IMG/VR virus record: IMGVR_UViG_2711768033_000002
Length of the DNA: 24,790 nt
Source of the DNA: a virus
Taxonomy: Duplodnaviria > Heunggongvirae > Uroviricota > Caudoviricetes
Reading direction: 5' to 3' (one strand)
The notes beneath the pieces are model-generated. The model saw only the letters and a list, made by a program, of their open reading frames with translations. It was not told where the DNA came from and made no database searches. Below are positions 4,897-24,790 of this stretch, in pieces (within the stretch, counting starts at the first letter, position 1; every line of letters begins with the position of its first letter). The position numbers were made by a program, and so were the translations under genes.

Positions 4897-5595
4897 TTAC
4901 TGCGAAAGTTTGTTAATGGAAAGGAAGCTGCCAAAGTTGCCGACATTATTGCGAAACTTACAGCCACTCAGGCATTTGCTGCATTTATCCTTCGTGATAT
5001 CGGACGTCGGCTGGTCATATTCATCCGCGACCGCCGGACCGCTATAACCGCACTCATCGCCGCGATAGGTCCAGGTGCAGGTGTTGGCCAGCATGATACG
5101 TCCCGGAAAAACAGCGCCATCCGTTTCAGTCGGCGTGGACAGTACAAAAGAGGCACTGACCGCGCTCAGTTCGCTGCACTGCTCGATGCGCCAGCGGCTG
5201 ATCACCTCCTGCTCCGGATCGGCTTCGCTGTTTCCGTTGACGAAGTTCACCGCATCCAGAAAGCGGGCGTAAACCTTACGCCGGACCACCGTTCCGCCGA
5301 CCAGACTCTGCAGATCTTCCGCCATCCCGGTGATCATGCCGTGCAGGTTAGAGACCGTCAGTGTCGGACGGGCAGCACTGCCCTTGCCGTTCATCTCAAA
5401 TCCACTCCCCTGAATGGGATAGGCCTGATACTGCCGACTCTGCCAGGTGACAGACTCACCTTTTTCGTTCTGCTCATTACAGAAAAAGTAGCGATCCCCG
5501 CCTACCTCGGTCAGGTCGATTTCCCAGAGCACCACGCTGGCCGACTGCTCCGCACGAATGCATTCATTCAGCGTTTCCTGTTGTATGTCCTGCAT
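4897..5595 (-). CDS. L: Minor tail protein L (lambda gpL family)
   Basis: 232 aa; [31 protein letters not shown] resembles lambda L; C-terminal Cys cluster; start overlaps the M stop (TGATG). Confidence 0.9.
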   Translation of the reverse strand: MQDIQQETLNECIRAEQSASVVLWEIDLTEVGGDRYFFCNEQNEKGESVTWQSRQYQAYPIQGSGFEMNGKGSAARPTLTVSNLHGMITGMAEDLQSLVGGTVVRRKVYARFLDAVNFVNGNSEADPEQEVISRWRIEQCSELSAVSASFVLSTPTETDGAVFPGRIMLANTCTWTYRGDECGYSGPAVADEYDQPTSDITKDKCSKCLSGCKFRNNVGNFGSFLSINKLSQ

Positions 5596-5933
5596 CAGAT
5601 CACCACTTCGTCAAACTGACACGAAAAATCGGTATAGGTGATATGTTCTGTCGCTGACCACGTTCGACACACCACTCTGATTTTTCTGTTAATACCCGGC
5701 GGGCGCCAAAAAAAAGATTTATAGCCTTCATGCCGGGCTAAAAATTTTTCAAATGAATCACGTTCATTCGCCTCAACTTTGAAATCACAGGTGAAAACGC
5801 GCAGAGAATGATTAAGTCCATTTGGACTTCGTTGCTCATAACCATCGCCAAATCTTACAGTTTTTATCGATGGTTTATTTTCTGTTTTCATTCCATCCTC
5901 TGGTAACCAGTGAAATTCTTCCGTATTAGCCAC
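5595..5933 (-). CDS. M: Minor tail protein M homolog (diverged from lambda gpM)
   Basis: 112 aa; [10 protein letters not shown] and C-terminal FDEVVI resemble lambda M (VRFGDGYSQR...FEQVVN); GTG start at 5931-5933 overlapping the tape-measure stop; an alternative ATG start is at 5889-5891. Confidence 0.78.
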
Positions 5934-9324: not shown

Positions 9325-10094
9325 CTACACACACTGCTCCTGAAAATACTGGTCATCCAGTGCAAAGATCACTGCTTCAAATTCATCGCGCTCAATCAAT
9401 ACCGGATGAGTGGCTAAATATTCATTTATCTCTGTCAGAGATAAAGGCAAAGGCACCCCAGCCATTCCAGCATAACGTCGGGCACGGGATATTACCGAAT
9501 AGGCGTACAACAACTCCTTAAGCACCGGGTCTATTTCTGGTTCCGGTATCGGTGGCAACCTGAGTTTTTCTCGCTTCCATCTTGCCTTTTCCCCCCTTTC
9601 TCCCCCGAACTCCGATAACCACCGCTGGGCAGCTATGGCTTTTTTATCGTATCCTGCTTCTGCTGCTCTTTACCCTGGGCGATGCTGGCTGCTTCTGCAA
9701 GGATCTGCCAGTACAACTCTGGATTCTGCTTAAGCAGCGCGATCCCTCGTTCTGCCGTATATTCCAGTGCAACCTCAACACCATTAACCAGTTCACCAAC
9801 CCCTTTCCAGTCTTTCAGCAGATAACGAGCGGCATTATCAATGAGTAAATCATCAACAGAATCCACCTCGGAAACCTTTGAAATATCAAACTCCTTCGTT
9901 CCGACGTGCAAACTGGCATCCATTTTCTCAATGTGGCGACGGATTAATGCATTACGGGAGCGATACTGATCGTTATCGCTGCTTGCCACCAACAGTTTTA
10001 ACCCGTCTACAGGTTTTAAGTCCTTCATTGGCGTAAACCAGCGTTCTCCACCAATGATAATTTTCTGATTAAGAATAAACATCCATAACCTCAT
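9325..10094 (-). CDS. Tail assembly chaperone GT-like fusion made by -1 programmed ribosomal frameshift
   Basis: The -1 frame is open from the slippery site (AIAAQRWLSEFGGERGEKARWKREKLRLPPIPEP...) to TAG at 9325-9327; the downstream ORF has no ATG of its own (track start is TTG). Confidence 0.8.
9633..10094 (-). CDS. Tail assembly chaperone (gpG-like), unshifted product
   Basis: 153 aa ORF between the major tail and tape measure genes; ends ...DTIKKP with TAG at 9633-9635. Confidence 0.85.
   Translation of the reverse strand: MRLWMFILNQKIIIGGERWFTPMKDLKPVDGLKLLVASSDNDQYRSRNALIRRHIEKMDASLHVGTKEFDISKVSEVDSVDDLLIDNAARYLLKDWKGVGELVNGVEVALEYTAERGIALLKQNPELYWQILAEAASIAQGKEQQKQDTIKKP
9639..9645 (-). 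promoter_or_regulatory. Slippery heptamer A AAA AAG for the G/GT -1 frameshift
   Basis: Minus-strand ACG ATA AAA AAG CCA TAG; the heptamer sits 2 codons before the gpG-like stop. Confidence 0.8.
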
Positions 10095-10142
10095 TCAATG
10101 CGTCCCCCTGTAGGGCAGTACCACAGGAGGAATAACGGAAAA

Positions 10143-11105
10143 TCAACTAATCGCCTCAGCACTGGCTTTTGCGATCACGGCAGCCGGGGAATTTTTTTTT
10201 CTGGTTATCGTAGGTGCTTCATCTGCTGCGGTAATGCTCAATTGAACCTGGATAATGTCGCTATTACCCCCATCAGGCCATTCACCTGACACCTGAACCT
10301 TCGGGAAACTGAAAGTGTATGCCCCCTCTCCATTCGAAAGCGTGAAGCTGAACGGAACTGTTTCTCCAGTCAGTGTTTTACTCCAGATTTCCCACGCGGC
10401 TTTAGACCATGAAAGCGTCACCGTACCGGACGGTGTAAAAGTAGTCGGAATATTTGCTCCTGCATAAGGCGAGCCAGTCCCGATACAACGCTGTGTCTGG
10501 AGTTTGTTATCGAACTGAATATCAAAACTGTCGATACAAAAACCGTTACCTCCGGCAACACCATTCAGGCTTACTGCTGAAACCTCCTTAAACGAATAAC
10601 GTAGCTTTCCTGCACTATCCACAGGTTCGCCTTTGATAAAATTCGTATCATCGGCCTTTGATTCCCAGTCCAGTCCGGCAAAGGTTACGGTCGCTGTAAT
10701 ATCGCCGTCGTTAGGGATCTGCATTTTCCATGAGCCAACCTGCGCTCCTCTGACGACAGAGGCAATTCCGACATCGGACGCATAGGTCGCCAGAGAAAAT
10801 GTTATTCGCTCATTCCCCATTGTCAGAGAATCGCCTGACCATTCCGCGCCGAAACAGGATGCAAGAAAATCATCATGTTGACCCCAGCGAAATTTGGTAC
10901 CAACATCACCGCCGACATCCACAGTGCCAGGCGTCGCCCCCTGAGCCATCCGGGAGCCACCAATCTCATTATTTTCGCCTTTATTCTGGGTGGGTTTTAC
11001 TCCCCAGCTTGTGCGTTTTAATAAACTCCAGTCACCACTTGCTGGCGTAGTGCCTGCAACCGTCTCCCGGATAAATGCCGAGATAACCTTTGCACCTGAA
11101 CTCAC
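10143..11105 (-). CDS. Major tail (tube) protein
   Basis: 320 aa, Gly/Thr/Ser-rich, immediately upstream of the G/GT chaperones; GTG start 11103-11105 preceded by GGAGG with 5-nt spacing and an in-frame TAG just upstream. Confidence 0.8.
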   Translation of the reverse strand: MSSGAKVISAFIRETVAGTTPASGDWSLLKRTSWGVKPTQNKGENNEIGGSRMAQGATPGTVDVGGDVGTKFRWGQHDDFLASCFGAEWSGDSLTMGNERITFSLATYASDVGIASVVRGAQVGSWKMQIPNDGDITATVTFAGLDWESKADDTNFIKGEPVDSAGKLRYSFKEVSAVSLNGVAGGNGFCIDSFDIQFDNKLQTQRCIGTGSPYAGANIPTTFTPSGTVTLSWSKAAWEIWSKTLTGETVPFSFTLSNGEGAYTFSFPKVQVSGEWPDGGNSDIIQVQLSITAADEAPTITRKKNSPAAVIAKASAEAIS

Positions 11106-11131
11106 AGGAGCCTCCTATGTCATTAATTGCG

Positions 11132-11524
11132 CTAGAGCGCGCGATATGGAATTTGAAGATTAAGCTGGAACCAGCCATTCTTTTCGCCAACGGCTATTGA
11201 GGAAACAGCCTGGTAACTGAGACGATCGTCATCCTGAAACTCAAACAGTTCCCGCAATTTATCGGCTGTCTCAGTAATGAGTTTTGAACCAGAACCTGCG
11301 GGGACAAATAACTGAATAATGATTATCCCCGTGCGATAAACAATCGGCCCCGCGCCAATTTCATTAACTCCAGCCTGCCCGGGAATATTACTTAACCGCG
11401 CCCAGATTAACTTACCGGAAGGATCGAACGTTGGCGCGTTCGGATACAATACGTCTTTTCCATCAATAATCGTCTGTGCCGTCATTCTGGAAATAACCGT
11501 ATTTCTGATTTCAGTAAACGTCAT
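11132..11524 (-). CDS. Tail completion / tail terminator-like protein
   Basis: 130 aa ORF directly upstream of the major tail gene; ATGA overlap with the preceding gene; assignment is by synteny only. Confidence 0.55.
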   Translation of the reverse strand: MTFTEIRNTVISRMTAQTIIDGKDVLYPNAPTFDPSGKLIWARLSNIPGQAGVNEIGAGPIVYRTGIIIIQLFVPAGSGSKLITETADKLRELFEFQDDDRLSYQAVSSIAVGEKNGWFQLNLQIPYRAL

Positions 11525-11901
11525 TTGTAAGCCTGTAAAACACCATGAAAAGCGTTGGCATACACGCCAGTTGGCGCTTGTTGTGAATGACCGTTTTCAA
11601 GAGCCTCTGCATAAGGAAGGTTATTCTGGATATAAATAACTCCGTAATTTGCAGCTTTCGAAATAACCCCGATCCCACGCTGAACAGCAATCGTACCGTT
11701 CGGATCCACGTTATCAGATATACCAAAATCGGGATGCTGTAACGACACCAGGTTGTTATTTCTGAAACGTCCGGTATCAACCGGAGCAGCAATATCAATA
11801 GCAGTAAGAATCTGAATAGCGATGTAGCGAATCTTCAGCCCTACATCTTCCTCAATCATCCCGGCAAATATTGACGGTTCTATATCCCATGCCTTTGCCA
11901 T
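11521..11901 (-). CDS. HK97 gp10-family head-tail joining protein
   Basis: 126 aa; PVDTGRFRNN and NNLPYAEALENG resemble the HK97 gp10 family signature as I recall it; located in the neck gene block. Confidence 0.6.
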   Translation of the reverse strand: MAKAWDIEPSIFAGMIEEDVGLKIRYIAIQILTAIDIAAPVDTGRFRNNNLVSLQHPDFGISDNVDPNGTIAVQRGIGVISKAANYGVIYIQNNLPYAEALENGHSQQAPTGVYANAFHGVLQAYK

Positions 11902-12285
11902 TTACGCTCTCCTTAACTGGATAGAGTAAACTGATGCGGAAGGATCTACACTTGCTGTAATTACCTCGTATCGTTGTAACTGCCTTGATACAGGATCATA
12001 AATCTCAATAATATGGTCGACAGCTGGTTTATCCGTAACCTCGCATACCAGAGCGGTTAATTTAAGGTCACCATGCAAAATATTAATCCCATCAATTCTG
12101 CCCAGCTTATAACGTGTCAACACGCCTCGCCCGGTATAGATTGCGGTGGATTCGCCGCCAGTTTCCGTCACAGGATCCCAGTGCCGGTGCGTAACGTAAG
12201 AACCAGAAAAATCACTCACGGCGTCCGCTAAATCCTCATCAAAAGCAGCGGCAACCTCTGACTGAATCTCTTCACGAAGCCCCAT
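11902..12285 (-). CDS. Head-tail adaptor / head closure protein (neck)
   Basis: 127 aa ORF tightly packed between connector-like and gp10-like genes; assignment by synteny. Confidence 0.5.
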   Translation of the reverse strand: MGLREEIQSEVAAAFDEDLADAVSDFSGSYVTHRHWDPVTETGGESTAIYTGRGVLTRYKLGRIDGINILHGDLKLTALVCEVTDKPAVDHIIEIYDPVSRQLQRYEVITASVDPSASVYSIQLRRA

Positions 12286-12680
12286 TATCCCCCCCTCACA
12301 ACCCTGACTTGTGAGCGACTAAGTCCGTACGGTTTCAGCAGTGCTATCGCAAGCTGTAAATCGGGTTCAAGCAATGCAGTGCTGTTTGCTGGCAACTCAG
12401 AAAATGATTTCGATACACTGACCCCGTCAGCCGACACGGCTTTACTGATAACAACGCCAGAATCATTTTTCTGCTGAAACAACTTACCGAATGAGGCAAT
12501 TCTGGCTGCATATGCTCCCGCAAGTTTTACCTCTTCCGGAATACGGGATGGGTTAATTTTCAGGTTGAAGCCATTAAGCCAGGCATTAGCCATTAAAACA
12601 GCTTTATTTTTAGCGTTCTCACTCGTCCAGGCGTTCCCAAACGCATTATCAACGTCATCACAGGTCACGTAAGTGATCAT
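12285..12680 (-). CDS. Head-tail connector protein (gp6-like)
   Basis: 131 aa; first gene after the capsid terminator and small ORF; AGGAG-type RBS upstream of the ATG at 12678-12680. Confidence 0.55.
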   Translation of the reverse strand: MITYVTCDDVDNAFGNAWTSENAKNKAVLMANAWLNGFNLKINPSRIPEEVKLAGAYAARIASFGKLFQQKNDSGVVISKAVSADGVSVSKSFSELPANSTALLEPDLQLAIALLKPYGLSRSQVRVVRGG

Positions 12681-12683
12681 GTG

Positions 12684-12860
12684 TTACTCCTGAGTTTTCC
12701 AGCCCATAGCCTTCCAGTTGTCAACTTCATCAGGATGAACATTAGCGATAGTTGGTGCGCCGGGAAACATCTGATAATCGGTCACCATAACCACTAACTC
12801 AATTTGCGTTTTTTGTGCGGCTTCACGCTGTGCTCTTTGCTCTTTAGTTAATCCGGCCAT
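12684..12860 (-). CDS. Small hypothetical protein (58 aa), absent from the ORF track
   Basis: ATG at 12858-12860 after a GGGGGG run; translates MAGLTKEQRAQREAAQKTQIELVVMVTDYQMFPGAPTIANVHPDEVDNWKAMGWKTQE; TAA at 12684-12686 lies 3 nt before the next gene's ATG. Confidence 0.4.
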   Translation of the reverse strand: MAGLTKEQRAQREAAQKTQIELVVMVTDYQMFPGAPTIANVHPDEVDNWKAMGWKTQE

Positions 12861-12867
12861 ATGCCCC

Positions 12868-12893
12868 CCATTAAAAATGGGGCCGAAGCCCCG
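12868..12893 (-). terminator. Rho-independent terminator after the major capsid gene
   Basis: Minus-strand GGGGC TTCG GCCCC followed by ATTTTTAAT (plus 12879-12892 ggggccgaagcccc); begins about 10 nt after the capsid TAA. Confidence 0.7.
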
Positions 12894-12902
12894 TTTGAAT
12901 GT

Positions 12903-14042
12903 TTAACCAAGAATCAGACAACCATGTGCCGGCTTCACTGATGAAACACCCCATGCCAGTCCAACTTCATAGCGCACCTGGCGATACTGACGATACAGTG
13001 CAATCTGGAACGTAATCCCTGAAATCGGGTCCGTAACATTCATTACATCATCAGCATTATCGCCACCTTCCGGCATTGCCGGAGTACGGGATGCCAGCAG
13101 AAACGCGTTGCGATCAAACGCCATATTTGCCGTAAAGGCCCCAACAACTGTGATGGCAGTATCATCGGCCAGATCCTGACGCAGTCCGGGCGCTGCAAGA
13201 GTAATCAGATTGCTGGTCGCTGCTGCCACAACATACTGATTCGGATCACCAGCGAACGTAACAATCTGACCTGCAGAAATACTCCCCGAACCAGTATCAA
13301 TGGAAATAAGAACATCGCCTTCTTTTTTCTCTCCATTCACGAGATAACCAGTTGCAGCAACCTTTGGCGCTCGTTTCACACCTGCCGAACTGTGAATATT
13401 GAATCCCTCCAGACGCCCCAACACGCCCTCACGCAGTAGCTGTTCAGTGCCGGATTCATTCACTTTAAACAATACAGACTGTTTTCCGCGCAAATTAGCA
13501 ATGGCAGTGGAGCCAAGCACCATCTGCAGATCGGTTGTCGGTGCGCCGTTATCCTCCAGAACCTGACGAGCCAGAGCAGCATCAGAAAGATCATCTTTAA
13601 CACCAAACGGCGTTGTCCCTGCGGTTCCCACGGCGCGGGAAGCACCGAAATACAACGCACCAAGATCAGCCTCAACCTCGTTTGCAAGGGCGCGAAAAGC
13701 CTGCTTGAACTGATCAGCCAGAATGGTGTTGTAAGTCCCTGAAGGGCCAAGAGCCAGTTGTTCTTCACCATTCCATTTAACCGGTGCCATTTTGGATTTA
13801 GTAATTTTTACATCAACAGTGCCAATATTTTGATCACCGGTATTCGGAGCTGACGGCCCCGGTACGATATCTTCGGTTTTCGCCTCAGGCGCAACTGGCG
13901 CGGTTACCGTCTGATCTTTTGCTGCGGCGTCAGCTTTTACGTTTTTTGCTACCGCAGGGATAAAACCTACCTGCTCACGGGATACAACATCCAGGGCGGT
14001 ATAAATAGTCGGGATCAACCCGGTCAGGGTATTTCCAGCCAT
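12903..14042 (-). CDS. Major capsid protein
   Basis: About 380 aa from the internal ATG at 14040-14042 (MAGNTLTGLIPT...) preceded by AAGGAA; the 31-codon track extension upstream reads like intergenic AT-rich sequence; followed by a strong terminator. Confidence 0.8.
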   Translation of the reverse strand: MAGNTLTGLIPTIYTALDVVSREQVGFIPAVAKNVKADAAAKDQTVTAPVAPEAKTEDIVPGPSAPNTGDQNIGTVDVKITKSKMAPVKWNGEEQLALGPSGTYNTILADQFKQAFRALANEVEADLGALYFGASRAVGTAGTTPFGVKDDLSDAALARQVLEDNGAPTTDLQMVLGSTAIANLRGKQSVLFKVNESGTEQLLREGVLGRLEGFNIHSSAGVKRAPKVAATGYLVNGEKKEGDVLISIDTGSGSISAGQIVTFAGDPNQYVVAAATSNLITLAAPGLRQDLADDTAITVVGAFTANMAFDRNAFLLASRTPAMPEGGDNADDVMNVTDPISGITFQIALYRQYRQVRYEVGLAWGVSSVKPAHGCLILG

Positions 14043-14140
14043 AATTAAATATTCCTTAAAAATTTGCGTAATTGTGAATAGATGGAGTAATGAGCTATCC
14101 AGCCCTGACACCAGCTCCCATCCGGAAGCTGACAAATGTG

Positions 14141-14905
14141 TTAATCAACGATTGTGATACCGTCTTTCAATGCGTTTTGCTTACCTGCAACATCCAGTGC
14201 ATCAAAAGCAGAGCGTTTCATCGTTTTCTGACCAATATCATGCTGTGTCGGACGGGAGCCGCCGCCATTGTTGCCACTGGCTTTCAGGATGTAGTCTTTC
14301 TGAGGGTAATTTTCGACAAGGAACTCCAGCGCCTCATCAAACTGCGCCAGTTCGCCAGGCTTCGCGCGGGAATAAATTTTGTTGCCGGAAGCGTCATAAG
14401 CAACGATCTTCCCTTCTTCCACTTTGAATGCCTGCCCGAAGCGGGCTTGTAATAAATCTGCCGGGATCGCAATTTTATCGGCAATATATTTTGAACCCGC
14501 AAAACTACCGCCAATCATAGAATCGTAAAGCTGCGTCTCCAGCATCTGAGAGCGTTGCTTTTCTTCATCTAATTGCTGCTGAAAATTTTTCGTAATTTCT
14601 GCCTTAACCTGGTCAACCTGTCCCGCATCGATCAGCTTTTTCTGGTCGATTTTTAACAGCATTTCCAGTGCCTCGATCGCCTTCTTCGGGTCTTCGATAG
14701 CGGCAAACTTAGCCAGTTTTTCCTCTGCAGCTTCTTTAGCCAGGCGATGATTTTTTGCCTCGCCATTAAGCTCTGTAATTTTTTTTATCGCCAGCGGTGC
14801 ATCGAAGCCGATTTCTTTACCATCGTCGTGCACATAAACTGGCAGGCCAGCAGTATCAATTTCTGCGTATTGTTTTCCGTTAATCTCGACCGTTTTCAGT
14901 TTCAT
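14141..14905 (-). CDS. Head scaffolding protein
   Basis: 254 aa from ATG 14903-14905 (MKLKTVEINGK...); coiled-coil-rich with a Gly-rich C-terminal tail; sits between the MuF-like and capsid genes. Confidence 0.6.
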   Translation of the reverse strand: MKLKTVEINGKQYAEIDTAGLPVYVHDDGKEIGFDAPLAIKKITELNGEAKNHRLAKEAAEEKLAKFAAIEDPKKAIEALEMLLKIDQKKLIDAGQVDQVKAEITKNFQQQLDEEKQRSQMLETQLYDSMIGGSFAGSKYIADKIAIPADLLQARFGQAFKVEEGKIVAYDASGNKIYSRAKPGELAQFDEALEFLVENYPQKDYILKASGNNGGGSRPTQHDIGQKTMKRSAFDALDVAGKQNALKDGITIVD

Positions 14906-14960
14906 ATTAGTACCTGGTTTAAGTCTTCCGACAGTTACGCTGCTCACCATCCGGATCGCA

Positions 14961-14989
14961 GCAATAAAAAAGGCCACCCGAAGGTAGCC
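14961..14989 (-). terminator. Rho-independent terminator between the head morphogenesis and scaffold genes
   Basis: Minus-strand GGCTACC TTCG GGTGGCC (one G-U pair) followed by TTTTTTATTGC; plus 14972-14989. Confidence 0.55.
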
Positions 14990-15009
14990 TGTTGTAATAA
15001 ATGATTTAT

Positions 15010-16125
15010 TTAAATCCCTGCTTTTCTGAATACCTGTGCATCACGCTCACGGAGTTGCTTCAGCGTCAGCCATTCGCCTTTATCGGTGTAAAATTCATCT
15101 GGCGACATACCGCCATCCCGAATCAGCTTTGCCCGGGTTTCCCCCACAATCTGTTTTTGTCTGGTGTAAGGCTGACGCAAAAACCATTCCCTGTAGGTTG
15201 TATCTCCGGCCACCACGCCATCCATGCTGGCCCGCTCAGCCGGGGAAATATCACGAACATCAATACCCAGTTCCTTCGCTGATTTCAGAATGAACGTTTC
15301 CGTTGAGCGGCAGCAGAAATGAATTTTTCCCGGCCCATGCAAATAAGGCACACTGTGACCTACAGGTTTATTATCCAGCGTATATTTGAGGCGATCCCTG
15401 ATTCGACATTGTGGCGTAGTACGATTATCAAGCGTTGATAACCATTGCTTACCCTTAATCAAATCATTATTCGCGCTGGCAAAACTCTCACGGGCAGTAG
15501 CAGCAAGATGTCCAACCGCTGTTTTTGCAATGCTGGCCGCATTAGCCCGGCTCATCTGCAATGCACCATCCTGAAATCCCTTGCTGACATGTCCCCGAAT
15601 TTTTCTTGCGATCTGCTCATTGGTATCCCCCAGCAAAAAACCCTGACGCACCGTATTTGTTATGCGTCTGAGCCGATCCGCCTCAAGATCCAAGGCCCAC
15701 TCACTGAGCAGTCGTCCCTGGAATGGTCGCGCCATTGCAGCGGCGTAAAGTGCATCAGAAGATATACCAACCAGAGGGTGAACATCAGCAACAAAATCAG
15801 GTAGCAGAGAATCAAACAGACTTAACTGATAACCAGCCTCATAAATTGCCAGCTCGTTCAGCTCTCCGGAGAGACTGGTAAACATGCTGTTAATAGCAGC
15901 GCGGTTAACCTCTCTGACACTCGCCAGAAGTGACTCCAGGCGCGTAACGGTAAAACTACCAGGATCGAGGCTGTCCAGTGCTACCAGCAGGCGAGCTGTA
16001 AGCTCCGCATCGCTGTCATTCAGTATTTTCACCATTCTGGCAGCCACACCAGTGCTATAGCGGGATATCCAGACTGCATGAGCAATTGATTCATCACGCA
16101 GCCGTTCATTCACGGTTTGCATCAT
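15010..16125 (-). CDS. Head morphogenesis protein (Mu F / SPP1 gp7 family)
   Basis: 371 aa directly downstream of the portal gene; the Mu F / SPP1 gp7 family call rests on this position plus general resemblance. Confidence 0.75.
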   Translation of the reverse strand: MMQTVNERLRDESIAHAVWISRYSTGVAARMVKILNDSDAELTARLLVALDSLDPGSFTVTRLESLLASVREVNRAAINSMFTSLSGELNELAIYEAGYQLSLFDSLLPDFVADVHPLVGISSDALYAAAMARPFQGRLLSEWALDLEADRLRRITNTVRQGFLLGDTNEQIARKIRGHVSKGFQDGALQMSRANAASIAKTAVGHLAATARESFASANNDLIKGKQWLSTLDNRTTPQCRIRDRLKYTLDNKPVGHSVPYLHGPGKIHFCCRSTETFILKSAKELGIDVRDISPAERASMDGVVAGDTTYREWFLRQPYTRQKQIVGETRAKLIRDGGMSPDEFYTDKGEWLTLKQLRERDAQVFRKAGI

Positions 16126-17512
16126 TGATTTCCATCAACATTACACTCTGATTTTTTAATTCATCGATCACATCCTCTGGACGGGAATCCTGATCGATAA
16201 ATTTCAACGCCTGCAACACCCGAACCGCATCAATCTGACGTATATCACCGCCCTGACGCAATGACTGAACAGCCAGCGCGGAGGATGAGTCAAACACCTG
16301 GGCAGATACATCCAGTTCAGTGCGCACATCCACATTGCCACCGCAACTCTCTCCGCTCCATTCCGCCATTATCTGGAGAATATTATCGAGGGCATCTTCG
16401 AGGGAGTTCGCCATTGTATAAAGCGGCGAGTGTTCCTGCATCCGCTCTTCATTAGTCTGATCAACAGATTTGGTGGATGTATTTTCAGCCCGCAGAAGTT
16501 TAGCGCCGGCATGACGCATCTGATTTTCCAGCTTCTCAAGTGATGTTTCGCCAGATTCTATCGCTGCGCCACTATGTTCAACATATTCGAGGCCATTTTT
16601 TGTTCTGTCCTCAAAAATCGTAGCCGTGGATGCACCAACCGTCAGTTCTTCATTCCTGTCCAGCCCGTAGGCCACCAGCAATGGAACGCGGGCAACATGA
16701 AGAATATTGTCCTGCTCGCTCTGGCTTTGCCAGTGCTTGATATTCAGCAAGCCAAGATTAAGCAATGGCGGTGTACCACGCATAAACCCTGTTTTCTTCG
16801 TATACAGTGTTACCAGAGGAATATCATCACGGCTGGTATTCCATGACTCATGAAGCATCCAGACAGATTCGCCATTAGTACCTTCGCTGCGTCGATAAAT
16901 TTCTACTCGACGGGGCATAATATGGCGGATCTGCTCCACCTTCTTCTGCCCGAAATCATCACCATCAATAATGATGACCTCTTTTATACGCAAATCAGTG
17001 AGAACAACTTTCCCTTTTTCAACTTTCGATTTCCATCCAATAACCTGGCGTGGATTCAGCATCGTAACGTACGGGCGACCACCGGCCGCGTTTTCATCGG
17101 CTTTTGTCCGAATCTCGTTCATATCCGTTCGTGGATAGTCCACCAGCGCATGTGCCACACCATACTGAAATGCGAGACTGAAAAATTGCTGCGCCCACAC
17201 ATCCAGTCGGCTCCCCTCCATGTCGATATTTTCTGCATATTCCCTGATTTTTTCCGGCGTTTCCTCACTCAATACTGTCGGCTCTGCAAATATGCGCCCA
17301 ATATTTTGTTTGATGCTTTCTTCATACACAGGAAGTAACGTAGCCACAGACAGGCGTTTTTTATAAGCGTCTTCATCTTCATTAGGCCATTTGGGGAGAT
17401 AATTTTCCCCCTGCCTGCGCATTTCAAGCGTACCGCCCATCAATGCGTCGTTAATATCCCACGCCTCCAGCATATCGTTATAGTCGAGGTTGGGTGTTGA
17501 TATATCAGCCAT
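16106..17512 (-). CDS. Portal protein
   Basis: 468 aa ORF immediately after the large terminase gene (TAA-TT-ATG coupling); size and acidic C-terminal region are typical of portals. Confidence 0.8.
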   Translation of the reverse strand: MADISTPNLDYNDMLEAWDINDALMGGTLEMRRQGENYLPKWPNEDEDAYKKRLSVATLLPVYEESIKQNIGRIFAEPTVLSEETPEKIREYAENIDMEGSRLDVWAQQFFSLAFQYGVAHALVDYPRTDMNEIRTKADENAAGGRPYVTMLNPRQVIGWKSKVEKGKVVLTDLRIKEVIIIDGDDFGQKKVEQIRHIMPRRVEIYRRSEGTNGESVWMLHESWNTSRDDIPLVTLYTKKTGFMRGTPPLLNLGLLNIKHWQSQSEQDNILHVARVPLLVAYGLDRNEELTVGASTATIFEDRTKNGLEYVEHSGAAIESGETSLEKLENQMRHAGAKLLRAENTSTKSVDQTNEERMQEHSPLYTMANSLEDALDNILQIMAEWSGESCGGNVDVRTELDVSAQVFDSSSALAVQSLRQGGDIRQIDAVRVLQALKFIDQDSRPEDVIDELKNQSVMLMEINDANRE

Positions 17513-17514
17513 AA

Positions 17515-18816
17515 TTAAATCCGAAGTGATGTGACTCTTCCGGTCGGTTTGACAATAGGGAATTGCTTAACGATGAAATAACCTCCGGCATCATTCGGGT
17601 GATCATTGCCAGATTTTTTATCAGGCTCCCCCTTATCATCCCAGACCTGTTGCTCCAGAGATTCGGCATATACCGGACAACGCTTCACATTAACTTTATA
17701 GCGACGCTCACCATTGGCATTGCAGAACATTGCATTCATTGAGTTAACGCGATCTTTTACTGGCGGGTTCGAGCTGTTCACCACAACGTTAAAACCTGCC
17801 TGCTTAAGCTGGGCTATATCCGTCGTACTTGCGTTACTTGATTTTCTGGAATCTCCGGAAGCATCTGGATAAATATAAATCTCCCTCACTTTCCGGTAAT
17901 CATGCCCGTCATACAGCCAGAAGCGTTCTTTAATGAGGCGGATCATATCCGGCGTATCGTAGGCATTGATGATTTCAGTTACCGCACATGGAAGCCCCAA
18001 ACGCAGCACATGGACGATTCCCGCCATCTTTCCAACGTTAAAATCCATCCCAATATAAATCGGCTCCCCTGGCTGCTCCACTTCTTCGCAATTATTCAGT
18101 TTCCGGTCAAACTGATGGTAAACAGTACCACTTGTCAGGTTAGTAAACCGTCCTAGAAGATAGGCTTTAATCAGCTCTGGAGGGTATGATTCAAGAAGTG
18201 AAGGAATGTAATCTGCTGGCAGGTTCTTTTCATTATCGAAAGTAGATGCCTGCACCAGACCATACAGTGAGGCCAGCTCTGTTTTTTCACGCACGGCTTT
18301 AACAAACTGCTCGTAGACAAATTTGAATCCTTCCGGCGTGGTTGTAACGTCAATACCGTTGCGAAGTCCATCAATCTTATAACGCATACGCGCAATTATC
18401 TTGCGCCACGCCGTTCTGGCTTTTTCCTTCGGCAAAATGTCCAGTTCATCCACCAGCGCATTACCAATTTTGAAACCGACGATCGTTTGTGGCTTCTCCA
18501 TCGATCTGCAGATAGTGGTTCCCCGATACTGGCGTCCGTAATAAAAGTGAACCTCTTTATTTCCCTCATTAATTTTTACGTTCAATCCCCAGTCAGCAGC
18601 AACTTCTTCCACTGTAGGGTAAAAAATATCGCGAATTTGGGGATACGTTGGCGCAAAATATCCCTGATTTATACCTGGATGCGCCCAAATCCCCTTGCAT
18701 ATGCCGCCACACCCAACCCATGTTTTGCCCGAGCCAAAACCAGCAATATAGGCTTTAAATTTATGGGGCATTGAAAGAAATCGCGCCTGAGGCACATTAA
18801 GCGTCGGAGAGATCAT
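17515..18816 (-). CDS. Terminase large subunit
   Basis: Walker A AGFGSGKTW near the N-terminus; acidic motif IYIYPDASGDS in the C-terminal nuclease half; the ATG at 18814-18816 (MISPTLNV...) lies 8 nt after AAGGAG, while the track start at 18825 is GTG. Confidence 0.9.
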   Translation of the reverse strand: MISPTLNVPQARFLSMPHKFKAYIAGFGSGKTWVGCGGICKGIWAHPGINQGYFAPTYPQIRDIFYPTVEEVAADWGLNVKINEGNKEVHFYYGRQYRGTTICRSMEKPQTIVGFKIGNALVDELDILPKEKARTAWRKIIARMRYKIDGLRNGIDVTTTPEGFKFVYEQFVKAVREKTELASLYGLVQASTFDNEKNLPADYIPSLLESYPPELIKAYLLGRFTNLTSGTVYHQFDRKLNNCEEVEQPGEPIYIGMDFNVGKMAGIVHVLRLGLPCAVTEIINAYDTPDMIRLIKERFWLYDGHDYRKVREIYIYPDASGDSRKSSNASTTDIAQLKQAGFNVVVNSSNPPVKDRVNSMNAMFCNANGERRYKVNVKRCPVYAESLEQQVWDDKGEPDKKSGNDHPNDAGGYFIVKQFPIVKPTGRVTSLRI

Positions 18817-19891
18817 CTTCATCACTCCTTAATCTGGCATCAACCACATTAATATTGATCGCCACAGGCTGGGGATGTTCATTATCCTCCACCGTTTCGA
18901 TCTCTTTGCGCAGCTTCTGGTTCTCTATTCTGCGCCGTTCAATTTCCAGTTCCTGTAGCCGCTTATCTGCACATAATGCCCCGCCAGCAGAAAGCAAACG
19001 CAACAATTCACGCCGGGCGGCAGCCTTATCCTCCAGCAGGATCTCAACACCGTATTTTCCGAGCTTTGACCCTGCATATAATTGCCGCGCATCCCCATCA
19101 AGCAGTGTGGTATCAGCCATATAAAGCTGTCCTGTTCCCTCACCGCAGCACTTCGGGCAATCAGGATTGGGTATGGCGTTATCAACAAAGCCGAGGCCTC
19201 CATATTCCGGCTCGGGTTTACCATCTCTGGAGGCCTGTGCCGCAGCCTTATCGAATTCTGCAATATCACGCCACTGGTAGAGATGATTCTCGCCCCAGCA
19301 ATAACGGCAGTTAACACGGCGAAATTGTGCCAACTGATTGGGGTCGGCCTGGACAATGGCCATCAACTGGCTCACCAGTAAATCCAGGTCTGCGGTATAG
19401 CGTTTCTGGTACTGATTGCGGAAGTAGCTGATAGCACGATAAACCCTGGCATTTCTAAGCATACGGCTGGCGTTGCTGTTAGCTGTCGCACCTTGCCCCT
19501 CATAACCAGCCAGTCGGTATGCCTCTGTCGGCTTTTTCCCCTGAGCAACCAACATGGCGAATTTTGCCTGCTGGTCAGAAATACCGAATTCATCGGGGCA
19601 GAACGAAATTTCTTCCGTGTCCCCCTCAATCAGGAGTGCATCGGATACAGCCTTTTTTTTCTGAGATTTTCCGTTCTGCCTTTGCGCAGTCTGCGCAGTT
19701 TTTTTTCGCGCACTTTTTTGCGCAGTTTTGCGCATTTCTTTCTGCGCATTTTTCGGAGTTTTTTTGATGTAACGACGGGCTGTTGCGTAGTTCAGTCCCC
19801 TTGCTTCACACCATGCCACCGGAGATATACCGGAGCGGGTGTATTCAGCAATATACTCCTGCTGCAACGCCCCCCAGTCCGGTCTGCTCAT
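18797..19891 (-). CDS. Terminase small subunit (extended N-terminal HTH, basic linker, C-terminal Cys cluster)
   Basis: 364 aa; AKFAMLVAQGKKPTEAYRLAGYEGQGATANSNASRMLRNARVYRAI resembles the Terminase_2 HTH signature; additional N-terminal HTH-like segment; CRYC and CPKCC motifs; AGGA RBS 8 nt upstream of the ATG. Confidence 0.72.
   Translation of the reverse strand: MSRPDWGALQQEYIAEYTRSGISPVAWCEARGLNYATARRYIKKTPKNAQKEMRKTAQKSARKKTAQTAQRQNGKSQKKKAVSDALLIEGDTEEISFCPDEFGISDQQAKFAMLVAQGKKPTEAYRLAGYEGQGATANSNASRMLRNARVYRAISYFRNQYQKRYTADLDLLVSQLMAIVQADPNQLAQFRRVNCRYCWGENHLYQWRDIAEFDKAAAQASRDGKPEPEYGGLGFVDNAIPNPDCPKCCGEGTGQLYMADTTLLDGDARQLYAGSKLGKYGVEILLEDKAAARRELLRLLSAGGALCADKRLQELEIERRRIENQKLRKEIETVEDNEHPQPVAININVVDARLRSDEDDLSDA
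19683..19748. repeat. Array of palindromic TGCGCA hexamers separated by T-tracts, inside the 5' part of terS
   Basis: TGCGCA at 19683, 19692, 19719, 19729, 19743, plus CGCGCA at 19707; spacings 9-15 bp; intervening T5-T8 runs. Confidence 0.5.
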
Positions 19892-19894
19892 CAG

Positions 19895-20146
19895 TTAGTC
19901 CTGATTTTTATCCACCCTGAGTAGTTCGCGCAGAGCAAAGGCATCCCCTTTTCTGGCAAGCTTAAACAATGCCGCTCGTAACTCGGCTTCACCTTTCGCT
20001 CTGCCCTTACGGATGGCCGCATAAAAATCTGTCATTGCTTCCCGATTTTCTTTCAGTCGGTTCAGATCAACATCCAGAACGTCAGCGATTTGTTGTGCAG
20101 TCATCCGGCACGCTGCCAGAGACTCGACTTTCGAATACGGAATCAT
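19895..20146 (-). CDS. Small hypothetical protein, possibly DNA-binding
   Basis: 83 aa; ATG 20144-20146 preceded by GGGGGTG at 5 nt; stop is 3 nt before the terS ATG; overlaps the 3' end of the GT-like gene by 65 nt in another frame. Confidence 0.5.
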   Translation of the reverse strand: MIPYSKVESLAACRMTAQQIADVLDVDLNRLKENREAMTDFYAAIRKGRAKGEAELRAALFKLARKGDAFALRELLRVDKNQD

Positions 20147-21014
20147 TTGTCACCCCCATTGATATGCAGGGTGTCTTCTTCCTGTATTTTTCGTGAAGGA
20201 TTTTTACTGCAGCGTTGTTCCAGGTGACCTGATGGTGAATGCGTTTATGGCTGGCACCCATCAGTGAGATTTTTACGCACGACGGCGAATACATGACGGA
20301 GTAAAAACTTTTAACGTAGGTTCCGGAATCCAGATACAGCTCGGTCATTCCGCCGCTGTTTTTCTGCGTCTGTTTCTGCCCTAACTGGACAGCACCGATC
20401 GTCATAAACAATTCACCACAGCGACCGAGATTCGTGTACGTATTCACATCCTCGTTAATGCGCCCCATGAATGAGAACGGTCGATCAACCGAACAGATAA
20501 AGCTGTTCATTGCCTTGCGTTTCACCCACGAAGCATGGCCGCCATTGTCACCAAGAAAATCCCCGCCCTGCGACATAGCGATGGAAAGCGCGGGTATTGA
20601 TTCGTAATACGCCAGCATTTCAGAAAGGATCGCATCCAGTTTCCTTATCGGGAAATAGGCCTGGTCATAGTTGCGATCCACCCGAAACTGGAACTCGTGA
20701 TAATCATCATCGAGCTGAATGAAGTATTTACACCCGACCAGTTTTGCCAGGTCGAAACAGGCATTACGGGCGTAAAAAATTGAGCGGCGATCACCAAAAT
20801 TATCGGCTTCGTCAAAACGACTGGCAATATCGGCTTTGGAAAATACCAGCACCTGTTCACCAAATTCAGCCATGTACTGATGCCGTGTCTTATCTTCATC
20901 ATCAACAACGATAAAAATTTTCCCGGTATAGCCAGCACGACGCAACGTCCGGTAAGTCAGAACTTTGTCCGGTCGCCCGTGAGTCAGAATAAAGGCGCAA
21001 AAATCATCACGCAT
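20082..21014 (-). CDS. Soluble GT-A fold glycosyltransferase candidate
   Basis: 310 aa from ATG 21012-21014 (MRDDFCAFILTHGRPD...), with GGAGGAGGAGGAGGA immediately upstream as SD; the track start at 21038 is an alternative. Motifs KIFIVVDDED and KYFIQLDDDY are spaced like GT-A DxD motifs; no TM segments. Confidence 0.6.
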   Translation of the reverse strand: MRDDFCAFILTHGRPDKVLTYRTLRRAGYTGKIFIVVDDEDKTRHQYMAEFGEQVLVFSKADIASRFDEADNFGDRRSIFYARNACFDLAKLVGCKYFIQLDDDYHEFQFRVDRNYDQAYFPIRKLDAILSEMLAYYESIPALSIAMSQGGDFLGDNGGHASWVKRKAMNSFICSVDRPFSFMGRINEDVNTYTNLGRCGELFMTIGAVQLGQKQTQKNSGGMTELYLDSGTYVKSFYSVMYSPSCVKISLMGASHKRIHHQVTWNNAAVKILHEKYRKKTPCISMGVTNDSVFESRVSGSVPDDCTTNR

Positions 21015-21801
21015 ATTCCTCCTCCTCCTCCCCGCCATGCATGATCTCCACCATGCGCTGCGTCATTCGGACAAATCCATTTTCAATAGCCTGCTGATAA
21101 TCAATGATCACCAGCGCCGACTCCTCGAAAAGGCACTGAATTTCAGCGGGGGCATGAGCGTAATAGTCCGCAATTCTGCTGAAATTAAACACTGTGTGAC
21201 GTTCTGCCGCACACAGGAGGAATTTCTCAATATCAGGATCAAGGGACGCCGAACGTATCCGGCTGATCAGCTCCTGAGTTTTCGTATCGTCGTACAGTTC
21301 ACTGATATCCGGTTTACCGCCCGACGGCTCATAAACAGGCGTATCAATTTTCGTCGTATACGGCTCCTCCTCATTTCCTGTACCGGGCAAAACATCCGTC
21401 AACAGTTCATCAATTTCTGTCGGGATGAAGCCTGTCAGGGAGACATCAAAATCAGCATTGATTAGGTCCGACAGCTCCATCCGCAACAGATCTTCATCCC
21501 AGCCAGCATTCATCGGCAGGCGATTATCTGCCAGGCGGTACGCCTTTTTCTGCTCATCCGTCAGGCCAGACAGAACAATGACCGGAACAGAATCCATTTT
21601 GAGCATTTCAGCCGCCATAACACGACCGTGACCCGCAATAATTTCGCCCTTTTCGTCAATCAGCACCGGATTAGTCCAGCCGAATTGCTTAATACTTTCT
21701 ACCAGTTGTGCCACCTGCTCAGGGCTGTGCGTCCTGGCGTTGTGCGCATACGGTGACAATTCTTGTAATGGGCGATAGACTATCTTTAATTTCTCGCTCA
21801 T
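21007..21801 (-). CDS. ParB-like nuclease-domain protein
   Basis: 264 aa; N-terminal KIVYRPLQELSPYAHNARTHSPEQVAQLVESIKQFGWTNPVLIDEKGEIIAGHGRVMAA fits the ParB/Sulfiredoxin (ParBc) signature including GHGR; acidic C-terminus GGEEEEEYA. Confidence 0.8.
   Translation of the reverse strand: MSEKLKIVYRPLQELSPYAHNARTHSPEQVAQLVESIKQFGWTNPVLIDEKGEIIAGHGRVMAAEMLKMDSVPVIVLSGLTDEQKKAYRLADNRLPMNAGWDEDLLRMELSDLINADFDVSLTGFIPTEIDELLTDVLPGTGNEEEPYTTKIDTPVYEPSGGKPDISELYDDTKTQELISRIRSASLDPDIEKFLLCAAERHTVFNFSRIADYYAHAPAEIQCLFEESALVIIDYQQAIENGFVRMTQRMVEIMHGGEEEEEYA
21017..21031. repeat. (TCC)5 trinucleotide repeat
   Basis: Plus tcctcctcctcctcc; on the minus strand it encodes the EEEEE tail of the ParB-like protein and forms the GGAGG SD (or RRRR codons) for the downstream GT-like gene. 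Confidence 0.6.
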
Positions 21802-21828
21802 ACAGCCTTGCTTTATGAATAAAACGCA

Positions 21829-21852
21829 CCCCAGCAGCCAGTGCTACTGGGG
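21829..21852 (-). terminator. Putative terminator downstream of trkG
   Basis: Minus-strand CCCCAGTAG cactgg CTGCTGGGG (8 of 9 bp paired) followed by TGCGTTTTATTCAT; about 80 nt after the trkG stop. Confidence 0.4.
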
Positions 21853-21938
21853 ACGGAGGGGTTGCTGGTAAAGTTAGGTATTGGATCAATGAGTGAGTCA
21901 ACATAATATTAAACTCACAATTATAAATCAGCCATATA

Positions 21939-23396
21939 TTAGGAGCGCCAAAAAAAACCTGAAAACAATATAATAACAGGATAAATTTCAAGGCGACCAA
22001 GAATCATAGCTATGCACATTAAACATTTTGCAATGTCATTAAGCACTCCGAATGACGATGCAGTAGCCCCAAAACCTAATCCCATATTATTAATACATGC
22101 AGCCACTGTTGCAAATGATGTAAGAAAATCATATCCCATACCATTTAACACCAGTATAAAAAACACCGTGAAGAGAGTATAAAGAAAAAAGAAACTCCAT
22201 ACAGACCTCATTACACGATCTGTAACTATCTTCCCTCCTACATTTACACTCAACAACGCTCTGGGATGAGAAAGCTGATTTATCTCGTGTTTGCTTTGTT
22301 TGAAAAGTATAAGAAATCGAAGTGACTTAATTCCACCACAAGTTGAACCTATACATCCCCCAAAGAAACTTGACAACAGCAAAAACACTATCGTGTGCGT
22401 GGGCCAACTTGCATAATCCTGCGTAGCTAAACCATTATCAGTGAGCATGGAGCTGGCAAGAAAAAACGAATGAATAAAACTTCCATGCAAGTCATACATA
22501 CCTATATGCCAGACCTGGAAAGAGGTAACAATGATCACCCCTAAGGCTATTAACAGAAAGAAACGAAGTTCAATATCTCTGATTAAAGGTTTTATCGTTT
22601 TCCTGCTAATAACAATATACCAAAGAGTGAAGTTGAAAGCCGATAGCAGGGAAAAAGAACCAGCCACCAGCTCAACCAAATAGTTATTAAAATATCCGAT
22701 ACTCTCGCTATGAGTTGAGAAACCACCAAGCGAAACTGTGGAAATCCCGTGACAAATAGCATCAAACAAAGGCATTCCTGCAAGTCTATAACAGACAATA
22801 CAAGCAATACCTAATAAAGAATAAGTTATCCACAGTGTCCGTGACGTATCGGCCAGGCGGGGAGTGAGTTTGTCATCCTTAAATGGCCCCGGCATTTCTG
22901 ACTGATAAAGCTTTGCACCACCAATACCCAATAATGGCAATACAGCAACCGCCAGAACAATAACTCCTAAACCACCTATAAAATTTAACTGTGACCGATA
23001 GTACAAATATGCCCGAGGTAATGAACTAACATCATCAATTACAGTTGCTCCTGTTGTTGTTATTCCAGAAACCCCTTCAAACAGAGCATCAATGAACGTT
23101 AAATTAAGTTCTGAGTCAATCCATAAAGGGAATGCACTAATAACAGAAAACAAAATCCAAAACATTACAATTATAATAAACCCATCACGGGTACGTAATT
23201 GAATGCCAGATTTCTTAGTTGTATACCACGCTCCGCCACCAATGCAAAAAAATATAACGAAAGTTATAAAGAAAACGAACAGGCTTTTTTCTTTATAAAA
23301 CAATGCTACAACCATTGGTGGCAACATTGAAAGACTATAGAGCCAAACCAGGAACCCACACATATGAGTAACAACTCTTACATGAGATGTATTCAT
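21939..23396 (-). CDS. trkG: TrkH/TrkG-family potassium uptake membrane protein
   Basis: 485 aa from ATG 23394-23396 (MNTSHVRVV...); many TM segments; four TrkH-type filter motifs (SGITTTGATV, LGGFSTH, GGCIGSTCGG, NMGLGFG); markedly AT-rich; the prophage context matches the known location of trkG in Rac. Confidence 0.85.
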   Translation of the reverse strand: MNTSHVRVVTHMCGFLVWLYSLSMLPPMVVALFYKEKSLFVFFITFVIFFCIGGGAWYTTKKSGIQLRTRDGFIIIVMFWILFSVISAFPLWIDSELNLTFIDALFEGVSGITTTGATVIDDVSSLPRAYLYYRSQLNFIGGLGVIVLAVAVLPLLGIGGAKLYQSEMPGPFKDDKLTPRLADTSRTLWITYSLLGIACIVCYRLAGMPLFDAICHGISTVSLGGFSTHSESIGYFNNYLVELVAGSFSLLSAFNFTLWYIVISRKTIKPLIRDIELRFFLLIALGVIIVTSFQVWHIGMYDLHGSFIHSFFLASSMLTDNGLATQDYASWPTHTIVFLLLSSFFGGCIGSTCGGIKSLRFLILFKQSKHEINQLSHPRALLSVNVGGKIVTDRVMRSVWSFFFLYTLFTVFFILVLNGMGYDFLTSFATVAACINNMGLGFGATASSFGVLNDIAKCLMCIAMILGRLEIYPVIILFSGFFWRS

Positions 23397-23533
23397 ATCT
23401 AAATATTCTTTCAATTATAACCACCTTGCTGCAATATTATGATTATACTGTATAAAATTTAACTCCTCTTAGATCTTACTTCACTGTTCCTTATGAAACA
23501 ATCATCAAAATGAATCATATTGTAGTTAAGATT
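23397..23533 (-). promoter_or_regulatory. AT-rich putative promoter region for trkG
   Basis: Minus strand has two TATAAT hexamers (cagTATAATcat and ggtTATAATtga) within 50 nt of the trkG ATG; no good -35 match was found, so this is tentative. Confidence 0.3.
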
Positions 23534-23998
23534 TTACTTTAAACACTGCTCGGTTATGTATTGCTGAGCACCTTCAAGTTGGGCCTGCATCATTACCAGT
23601 CGTTCCCGGAGGGTGAAATAATCCCGTTCAGCGGTGTCTGCCAGTCGGGGGGAGGCTGCATTATCCACGCCGGAGGCGGTGGTGGCTTCACGCACTGACT
23701 GACAGACTGCTTTGATGTGCAACCGACGACGACCAGCGGCAACATCATCACGCAGAACATCATTTTCAGCTTTCGCATCAGCTAACTCCTTCGTGTATTT
23801 TGCATCGAGCGCAGCAACATCACGCTGACGCATCTGCATGTCAGTAATTGCCGCGTTCGCCAGCTTCAGTTCTCTGGCATTTTTGTCGCGCTGTTCTTTG
23901 TAGGCGATGGCGTTATCACGGTAATGATTAACACCCCATGACAGGCAGACGACGATGCAGATAACCAGAGCGGAGATAATCGCGGTTACTCTGTTCAT
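23534..23998 (-). CDS. Rz: i-spanin Rz
   Basis: 154 aa from ATG 23996-23998, forming an ATGA overlap with the endolysin stop; N-terminal TM ([16 protein letters not shown]) and coiled-coil periplasmic domain; TAA at 23534-23536. Confidence 0.85.
23593..23778 (-). CDS. Rz1: o-spanin Rz1 (lipoprotein), nested inside Rz in another frame
   Basis: 61 aa; lipobox VVGC followed by TS; Pro-rich (PPPPP, QPPP); fully embedded in Rz. Confidence 0.8.
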
Positions 23999-24492
23999 TG
24001 CTGACCCCACAAACAGATTTCACGCTCAATCTCACGACGAGTCATGAGACCTTTCCATTGCTTACCGCCAGCATATGTCCAGCGACGTAGCTGATCACAT
24101 GCGCCTTTGATATCGCCCTGGTTTATTTTGCGAAGAAGCGTCGATGTTCTGAAATTGCCAGCACCCACGTTGTAAACGAATGAGTAAAGAGCGCCGCGCG
24201 TTGTTTCCGGTATATCGACTTTGATGTACGGGTTAATTTGTCTGGCGACCGTGGCAAGGTCTTTATTCAAGAGTGTTTTGCATTCTGCTTTGGTATACGT
24301 TTTACCGAGCATGATGTCTTTTCCTGTATGCCCGTGACATACAGTCCATACACCAACAATATCTTTGTATGGTATGTAGCTGACACCTTCCAGACCATCG
24401 TTACCACTTGGGCCAGTGATTAACACTGATGCTATAGCAATTGCTCCGCCACCAATAGCAGCAGCAACGACTTTTCGTAATGATGGAGGCAT
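23995..24492 (-). CDS. R: SAR endolysin (T4-lysozyme-like, phage 21 R type)
   Basis: 165 aa from ATG 24490-24492 ([27 protein letters not shown]...); Gly/Ala-rich signal-anchor-release segment followed by a lysozyme core; the 9-codon track extension is encoded by IS2 sequence and uses TTG. Confidence 0.88.
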
Positions 24493-24790
24493 AGACTGGC
24501 CCCCTGAATCTCCAGACAACCAATATCACTTAAATAAGTGATAGTCTTAATACTAGTTTTTAGACTAGTCATTGGAGAACAGATGATTGATGTCTTAGGG
24601 CCGGAGAAACGCAGACGGCGTACCACACAGGAAAAGATCGCAATTGTTCAGCAGAGCTTTGAACCGGGGATGACGGTCTCCCTCGTTGCCCGGCAACATG
24701 GTGTAGCAGCCAGCCAGTTATTTCTCTGGCGTAAGCAATACCAGGAAGGAAGTCTTACTGCTGTCGCCGCCGGAGAACAGGTTGTTCCTG
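24492..24790 (+). mobile_element. IS2 (IS3 family) end carrying the orfA start, truncated by the window edge
   Basis: TAGACTGGCCCCCTGAATCTCCAGACAACCAATATCACTTAAATAAGTGATAG from 24492 matches the IS2 terminal inverted repeat as I recall it; followed by orfA. Confidence 0.85.
24583..24790 (+). CDS. insC: IS2 orfA (InsC-type transposase/regulator), 5' partial
   Basis: ATG 24583-24585; [69 protein letters not shown]; runs off the window end. Confidence 0.85.

Follow-up and report, generated by a model that had tools for sequence, protein, structure and literature searches.

The closest described counterpart of the locus examined here is trkG (b1363) of the Rac prophage of Escherichia coli K-12, a cryptic prophage in which the gene is flanked by an Rz/Rz1 remnant upstream and by ynaK downstream. 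For the K-12 protein, which is identical to the one studied here, TrkA-dependent K+ uptake and Na+-dependent K+ uptake have both been published, and K-12 trkG is expressed at a level similar to that of trkH and contributes to K+ uptake (PMC9898762). TrkG is Na+-dependent and H-NS-repressed whereas TrkH is neither, and trkG mRNA increases in hns and hns stpA mutants, reflecting partial repression by H-NS (PMC9898762). An RNA polymerase sigma-70 SELEX peak was reported at the trkG promoter, which by that method belongs to a small set of constitutive promoters within K-12 prophages (PMC5811629), and a lux fusion of an Rz–trkG fragment, which according to its primers begins within Rz and stops shortly before the ATG of trkG, is active (PMC9898762). 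Across strains the gene ranks with the most conserved of Rac (PMC5700373), and it has been published as foreign and low in GC. Thus, trkG in Rac is already known in all essentials, with its foreignness, low GC, H-NS repression, promoter and transport activity all in print. A literature search found no relevant paper that calls trkG a moron.

Here we describe trkG within a Caudoviricetes sequence (IMG/VR virus record IMGVR_UViG_2711768033_000002). The window, by which we mean the whole stretch of DNA analysed, is 24,790 nucleotides long. A preliminary description of its sequence had proposed a potassium-transporter moron at 21829-23533, a span bounded exactly by the base of a hairpin and by the first base beyond the Rz stop codon. 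Our comparisons lead us to conclude with high confidence that trkG is a moron of a full-length Rac-type lambdoid prophage, situated in the slot between Rz/Rz1 and ynaK and probably expressed from its own weak sigma-70 promoter, which would be partly damped by H-NS.

Genomic Context of trkG

The genes that define the position of trkG all lie on the same strand:

23995-24519, minus strand: endolysin (lysozyme) of the lysis cassette (Pfam Phage_lysozyme, 154.5 bits)
23534-24010, minus strand: Rz i-spanin, which ends the lysis cassette and is the upstream neighbour of trkG (Pfam Phage_lysis, 179 bits)
23593-23778, minus strand: Rz1 o-spanin, embedded in Rz (Pfam Rz1, 69.5 bits)
21939-23414, minus strand: trkG coding sequence, TrkH-family K+ transporter, 491 aa if read from TTG or 485 aa from the ATG at 23396
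21939-21941, minus strand: TAA stop codon of trkG
21007-21801, minus strand: full-length ynaK with a ParB/Srx N-terminal domain (Pfam ParB_N), downstream neighbour of trkG
18797-19891, minus strand: terminase small subunit (Pfam Terminase_2; SE11 annotation at 98.9% identity)
17515-18825, minus strand: terminase large subunit (SE11 annotation at 98.9% identity); the terminase opens the block of packaging and head genes

Downstream of trkG the order is ynaK, a gene for a TAGT-type glycosyltransferase, a small ORF, and the small followed by the large terminase subunit. With the endolysin, Rz and Rz1 genes upstream and the ParB-like, TAGT and terminase genes downstream, trkG indeed lies between the lysis cassette and the packaging genes, as had been proposed.

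The TrkG protein is 100% identical to that of E. coli K-12, the two nucleotide differences in the gene both being synonymous. The Rz–trkG–ynaK DNA matches the rzpR–trkG–ynaK stretch of K-12 Rac with 99.7% identity over ~2-2.4 kb, including both spacers; the 137-bp upstream spacer contains no difference and the downstream spacer differs at one base. This alignment bears out the likeness to the K-12 Rac context on which the preliminary description had relied. The K-12 match covers window positions 23978-21548 and resumes at 9984-8225 and, by this alignment, K-12 Rac corresponds to the element in the window without its positions 9985-21547 (11.6 kb). K-12 Rac accordingly lacks the 3' part of ynaK, the TAGT gene and the terminase, portal, capsid and tail tube genes, all of which are found in the window; it also lacks most of the lysis cassette, which is present here. 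Across the deletion in K-12, the 5' end of ynaK (window 21548) directly abuts ydaY (window 9984). This junction explains why K-12 has an orphan ydaY and a truncated ynaK, of which only the first 254 bases are retained before the match stops at window 21548.

The SE11 Rac-type prophage aligns with the window at 98.9% identity over 22.8 kb and is annotated with terminase, portal, capsid, tail tube, tape measure and tail tip genes, and outside the extent of the window it carries recET, kilR and sieB. In the window we recognize a full-length lambdoid prophage of E. coli of the Rac type, whose lysis, head and tail modules are complete by the SE11 annotation and alignment. The earlier description of its head and tail genes as intact rather than deleted proved correct: the 9985-21547 gap of K-12 is filled in the window, and a full-length prophage is 98.9% identical to it.

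Beyond its position next to trkG, ynaK overlaps a gene (together window 20082-21801, minus strand) whose product is a TAGT ("TET-associated," GREB1-related) glycosyltransferase (PF20691, 121 bits). The window proteins that were scanned against Pfam included no match to a TET/JBP dioxygenase. The M8 and OkiPb01716 prophages of E. coli, which lack trkG, retain the same ParB/TAGT gene pair, and ynaK and the TAGT gene may together act in the glycosylation of DNA or protein.

TrkG Is a Paralogue of TrkH

In the ORF list of the region, the minus strand holds a single long ORF at 21939-23414. Its product matches the Pfam TrkH profile PF02386 with an E-value of 5e-145 and 484 bits (cut-off 27 bits) across profile positions 3-500 of 502, scores 415 bits against NCBIfam TIGR00933, above the cut-off of 331, and is matched end to end by the sequences of the Vibrio TrkH structures 3pjz and 4j9u (E 1e-120). 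The TrkH-family signal in the profile searches is overwhelming, which excludes a protein without TrkH homology and substantiates the earlier assignment to the TrkH/TrkG type of K+ uptake proteins. The score against the TrkH equivalog model of NCBIfam, NF008020, is 449.7 bits, far under its cut-off of 866. TrkG is therefore a TrkH-family subunit and a paralogue of TrkH, not TrkH itself.

Sequence comparison places the four glycine-containing pore-loop motifs of TrkG, which make up the selectivity filter, in register with those of TrkH. In the alignment with Vibrio TrkH 4j9u, TTTGAT, GGFSTH, the loop glycine of TDNG / TTAG, and NNxGxG are all aligned.

Translation Start

The annotated K-12 gene begins at ATG 23396. 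A second candidate start, TTG 23414, opens the ORF directly after an in-frame TAA and follows a Shine-Dalgarno sequence:

23421-23427, minus strand: ribosome-binding site (RBS) AAGGTGG, 6 nt upstream of TTG 23414

In contrast, the annotated ATG is without an RBS. Five non-phage homologues (E. fergusonii, Citrobacter, Pectobacterium and two from Enterobacter) have a TTG or GTG with a GGAG-type RBS at the homologous position, whereas four of them read CTG, ATT, TTA or CTG where E. coli has the ATG, which is thus not conserved. Because the RBS and the TTG/GTG are conserved, and the ATG is neither conserved nor served by an RBS, we favor the conserved TTG, six codons upstream of the ATG, as the probable true start, yielding a protein of 491 rather than 485 residues. 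Annotation of the trkG start could be improved by adopting TTG 23414.

Candidate Promoter Signals Upstream of trkG

Candidate transcription signals are located between Rz and trkG:

23397-23533, minus strand: upstream spacer of 137 bp, 25.5% GC, identical to K-12
23514-23543, minus strand: TTTAAA-18 nt-TATGAT, 9/12, overlapping the Rz stop codon; the only match of a consensus scan in the spacer
23442-23447, minus strand: exact TATAAT, the best-placed candidate for a -10 box
23414-23419, minus strand: second exact TATAAT, overlapping the RBS-to-TTG spacer

If TATAAT 23447-23442 serves as the -10 box, transcription would start near 23435 and produce a leader of ~21 nt that includes the RBS, although the corresponding -35 sequence (AAGAGG/TAAGAG) is poor. 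If translation begins at the TTG, the second hexamer at 23419-23414 is probably the spacer between RBS and start codon and not a -10 box; the TTG start therefore leaves 23447-23442 as the best-placed -10. The promoter consensus scan found 5 sites versus 6.1 expected in shuffled sequence, so there is no enrichment and the scan cannot locate the promoter. Because such sites are no more frequent than in shuffles, TATAAT hexamers alone are not statistical evidence of a promoter.

These results divide the earlier proposal that trkG has its own promoter, with TATAAT in the upstream sequence. TATAAT is indeed present in the spacer, as two exact hexamers, but the one at 23419-23414 is likelier to belong to the RBS-to-TTG spacer. 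The promoter itself finds its support in the published SELEX (PMC5811629) and lux (PMC9898762) results; the sequence alone, with a scan output equal to that of shuffles, gives no proof. A scan of the whole window with Rfam at gathering thresholds matched no RNA family, and thus no riboswitch or leader of this kind is recognized upstream of trkG.

Hairpins Downstream of trkG

Two hairpins lie between the trkG stop codon and ynaK:

21893-21918, minus strand: AT-rich hairpin GUGAGU...ACUCAC just after the trkG stop codon, with no T tract and not a canonical terminator
21819-21852, minus strand: terminator-like element consisting of a stem at 21852-21829 and then TGCGTTTTAT, ~20 nt upstream of the ynaK start codon

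Of the 10 bp in the stem of the hairpin at 21852-21829, 7 are G-C. A T tract follows, and the hairpin has a predicted energy of -22.8 kcal/mol (z = -3.1), a stability reached by none of 200 shuffles. It is located in DNA of normal GC just upstream of ynaK. The BLAST match of relatives that lack trkG extends to window position 21851; the 3' arm and T tract are common to them, and the stems that these relatives have at the hairpin position are degenerate (z -0.3 and +0.9). Since its DNA is homologous to the ynaK leader of trkG-less relatives, the hairpin may be an element of the phage backbone that was strengthened in the trkG-bearing lineage, as opposed to one brought by the insert. The hairpin that had been described as the terminator of the moron is thus real, strong and followed by a T tract, but it sits in DNA shared with relatives that have no trkG, and the picture of a moron that brings its own terminator is not demonstrated.

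Proposed Expression in the Lysogen and During Lytic Growth

We propose that in the lysogen trkG would be transcribed from its own weak sigma-70 promoter, whose exact position is predicted to fall within the 137-bp AT-rich spacer, and that this transcription would be partly damped by H-NS. Transcripts would most likely end at the hairpin and T tract at 21852-21819, a putative terminator, and translation would most likely begin at TTG 23414, behind the conserved RBS. The protein is expected to act as the membrane subunit of the Trk K+ uptake system, working with TrkA of the host. Once the phage enters lytic growth, late transcription modified by Q should in our expectation continue through trkG.

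This last expectation touches on another explanation, namely that trkG is a late phage gene that shares a Q-dependent late promoter with the lysis cassette and serves lytic growth instead of autonomous conversion, for instance by making good the K+ that leaks out upon infection or by adjusting membrane potential and lysis timing. The gene has the same orientation as the late genes, follows directly after Rz/Rz1 inside the late unit, and in the window is accompanied by complete lysis, head and tail modules, so that late read-through is physically possible. However, the interval from ydaW to the rzpR remnant of K-12 contains neither a holin nor an endolysin gene, and the annotation of Rac includes no gene for Q. 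With holin and endolysin missing and no annotated Q antiterminator, the late promoter is presumably gone from K-12, and yet K-12 trkG is still expressed at a level like that of trkH (PMC9898762) and has a sigma-70 SELEX peak (PMC5811629). Closely related phages also manage without trkG, and expression in K-12 can be explained without a lytic role. We therefore consider it unlikely that trkG is a late gene in this sense. The late-gene and lysogenic roles are not mutually exclusive, and there is a small chance that in full-length Rac-type phages trkG is also read through by Q-antiterminated late transcription to the benefit of the phage, for instance if cytoplasmic K+ or membrane potential were thereby restored late in infection, with an effect on lysis timing or yield.

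trkG as Foreign DNA in the Phage Backbone

Our preferred explanation, a moron with its own promoter, holds that trkG was added to the phage, and base composition agrees with the earlier statement that it is encoded in strongly AT-rich DNA. The GC content of the coding sequence is 38.1% (GC3 32.3%), compared to 49.6% for the rest of the window, and that of the spacers is 25.5% upstream (23397-23533) and 41.6% downstream (21802-21938). In 60-base windows GC shifts between ~0.3 and ~0.6 near 21880 and near 23545.

Relatives of the prophage differ at the same position. The prophages of E. coli M8 and OkiPb01716 have a ParB/TAGT/terminase module that is 89-92% identical, combined with a different lysis cassette and no trkG. 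Conversely, a prophage with a 95%-identical Rz also lacks trkG and has other small genes between Rz and the terminase. An empty site, in which this Rz would be joined directly to ynaK, was found neither in 5,426 E. coli genomes nor in the phage collection, where mosaic relatives alone were encountered, and the insertion is accordingly deduced from mosaic comparisons. The trkG DNA, ~1.65 kb at roughly 21880-23545, is foreign to the phage backbone; the gene is missing from related phages at the same position and is distinct from the backbone in composition, in agreement with its earlier designation as a moron.

A separate observation concerns the M8 and OkiPb01716 prophages, in which the gene adjoining the terminase large subunit (locus 1-1170) is annotated "anti-CBASS protein Acb1 family protein." Its position is that of the portal gene in SE11, for which this label is odd.

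The closest TrkG relatives outside E. coli are 62-79% identical over the full length of the protein, and each is encoded outside any phage:

E. fergusonii: between porin genes and a DJ-1-like gene
Pectobacterium: after ychF
Serratia: in an island with primase and IS remnants
Citrobacter: next to dynamin-like GTPase genes
Enterobacter: in a core locus between a radical-SAM gene and ftsP-plsC-parC

The Enterobacter paralogue of TrkG type (two loci, at 5001-6476 of each) is 70-71% identical, and its GC content equals that of its flanks, from which it follows that the TrkG type is a resident paralogue in some Enterobacterales. In the Enterobacter core locus it is native and not phage-borne, and the Rac trkG is a captured, low-GC member of an Enterobacterales TrkG clade. 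Flanking sequences were also compared with those of the non-phage homologues for a promoter region that may have travelled with the gene. Nucleotide similarity is limited to the coding region (window 23419-21935), so that the sequence does not show co-transfer of the promoter, and an apparent shared AGTATAAT in E. fergusonii may be a chance match in AT-rich DNA.

The opposite history, in which trkG is ancestral in the phage lineage and the relatives without it have lost the gene, could draw on the fact that no site was found at which this Rz directly adjoins ynaK and on the high conservation of trkG among Rac genes (PMC5700373). This history is highly improbable given the GC content ~11 points under that of the backbone, with sharp transitions at both ends, the occurrence of the nearest protein relatives (62-79%) in non-phage chromosomal or island contexts in the organisms listed above, and the Enterobacter copy, which sits in a core locus with the GC content of its flanks.

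Conservation, Distribution and Integrity of trkG

Among 5,426 complete E. coli genomes, 1,541 contain at least 80% of a 2-kb Rz–trkG–ynaK query, nearly all of them annotated with trkG, and at least 1,092 complete genomes have ynaK undeleted beside trkG. Thousands of E. coli records label the matching gene trkG. The intact trkG–ynaK arrangement is common rather than unusual. Ten deposited phage records of Rac type also carry the trkG stretch. In several E. coli strains, the Rz–trkG–ynaK stretch is split by insertions of the IS1, IS3 or IS5 family.

That the AT-rich ORF is merely a decaying or silent relic without function, as low GC and targeting by H-NS (PMC9898762) might suggest, is hardly conceivable: the ORF is intact and encodes the functional K-12 TrkG with synonymous differences only, the protein belongs to a 90%-identity cluster with 4,894 member sequences, all pore-loop motifs are conserved relative to the TrkH structures, and published transport assays refute this idea for the identical K-12 protein (PMC9898762). 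The undamaged sequence and its identity to a functional protein also lead us to reject a chance ORF.

Comparison With Known Systems

As a moron of a full-length prophage, trkG can be set beside three kinds of described systems, beginning with Rac itself. In Rac, trkG is textbook host-useful prophage cargo, and recognizing it in the window means little beyond correct annotation. The complete Rac-type phage is, however, the original setting of trkG and makes a suitable background for asking whether the transporter helps the phage.

The second comparison is with members of the same protein family. The core-genome TrkH proteins of E. coli and Vibrio (3pjz, 4j9u) share family, length and fold class with TrkG, which falls in the TIGR00933 subfamily. 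Chromosomal TrkG paralogues have an RBS and a TTG/GTG start as in Rac trkG, and in Enterobacter the GC content of the paralogue is host-like, unlike that of Rac trkG. These Enterobacterales relatives could improve the picture of the history of trkG.

Finally, trkG resembles the lambdoid morons located between Rz and the packaging genes, sharing with them the slot, a cargo that does not contribute to the virion, and a composition unlike that of the backbone. An example in phage lambda is bor, and in a Qin-type prophage the slot between Rz and the packaging genes is occupied by ynfO and a DUF1398 gene. Compared to the other morons of the slot, trkG stands apart as a large polytopic transporter encoded on the strand of the late genes, with its downstream hairpin in DNA homologous to the phage backbone.
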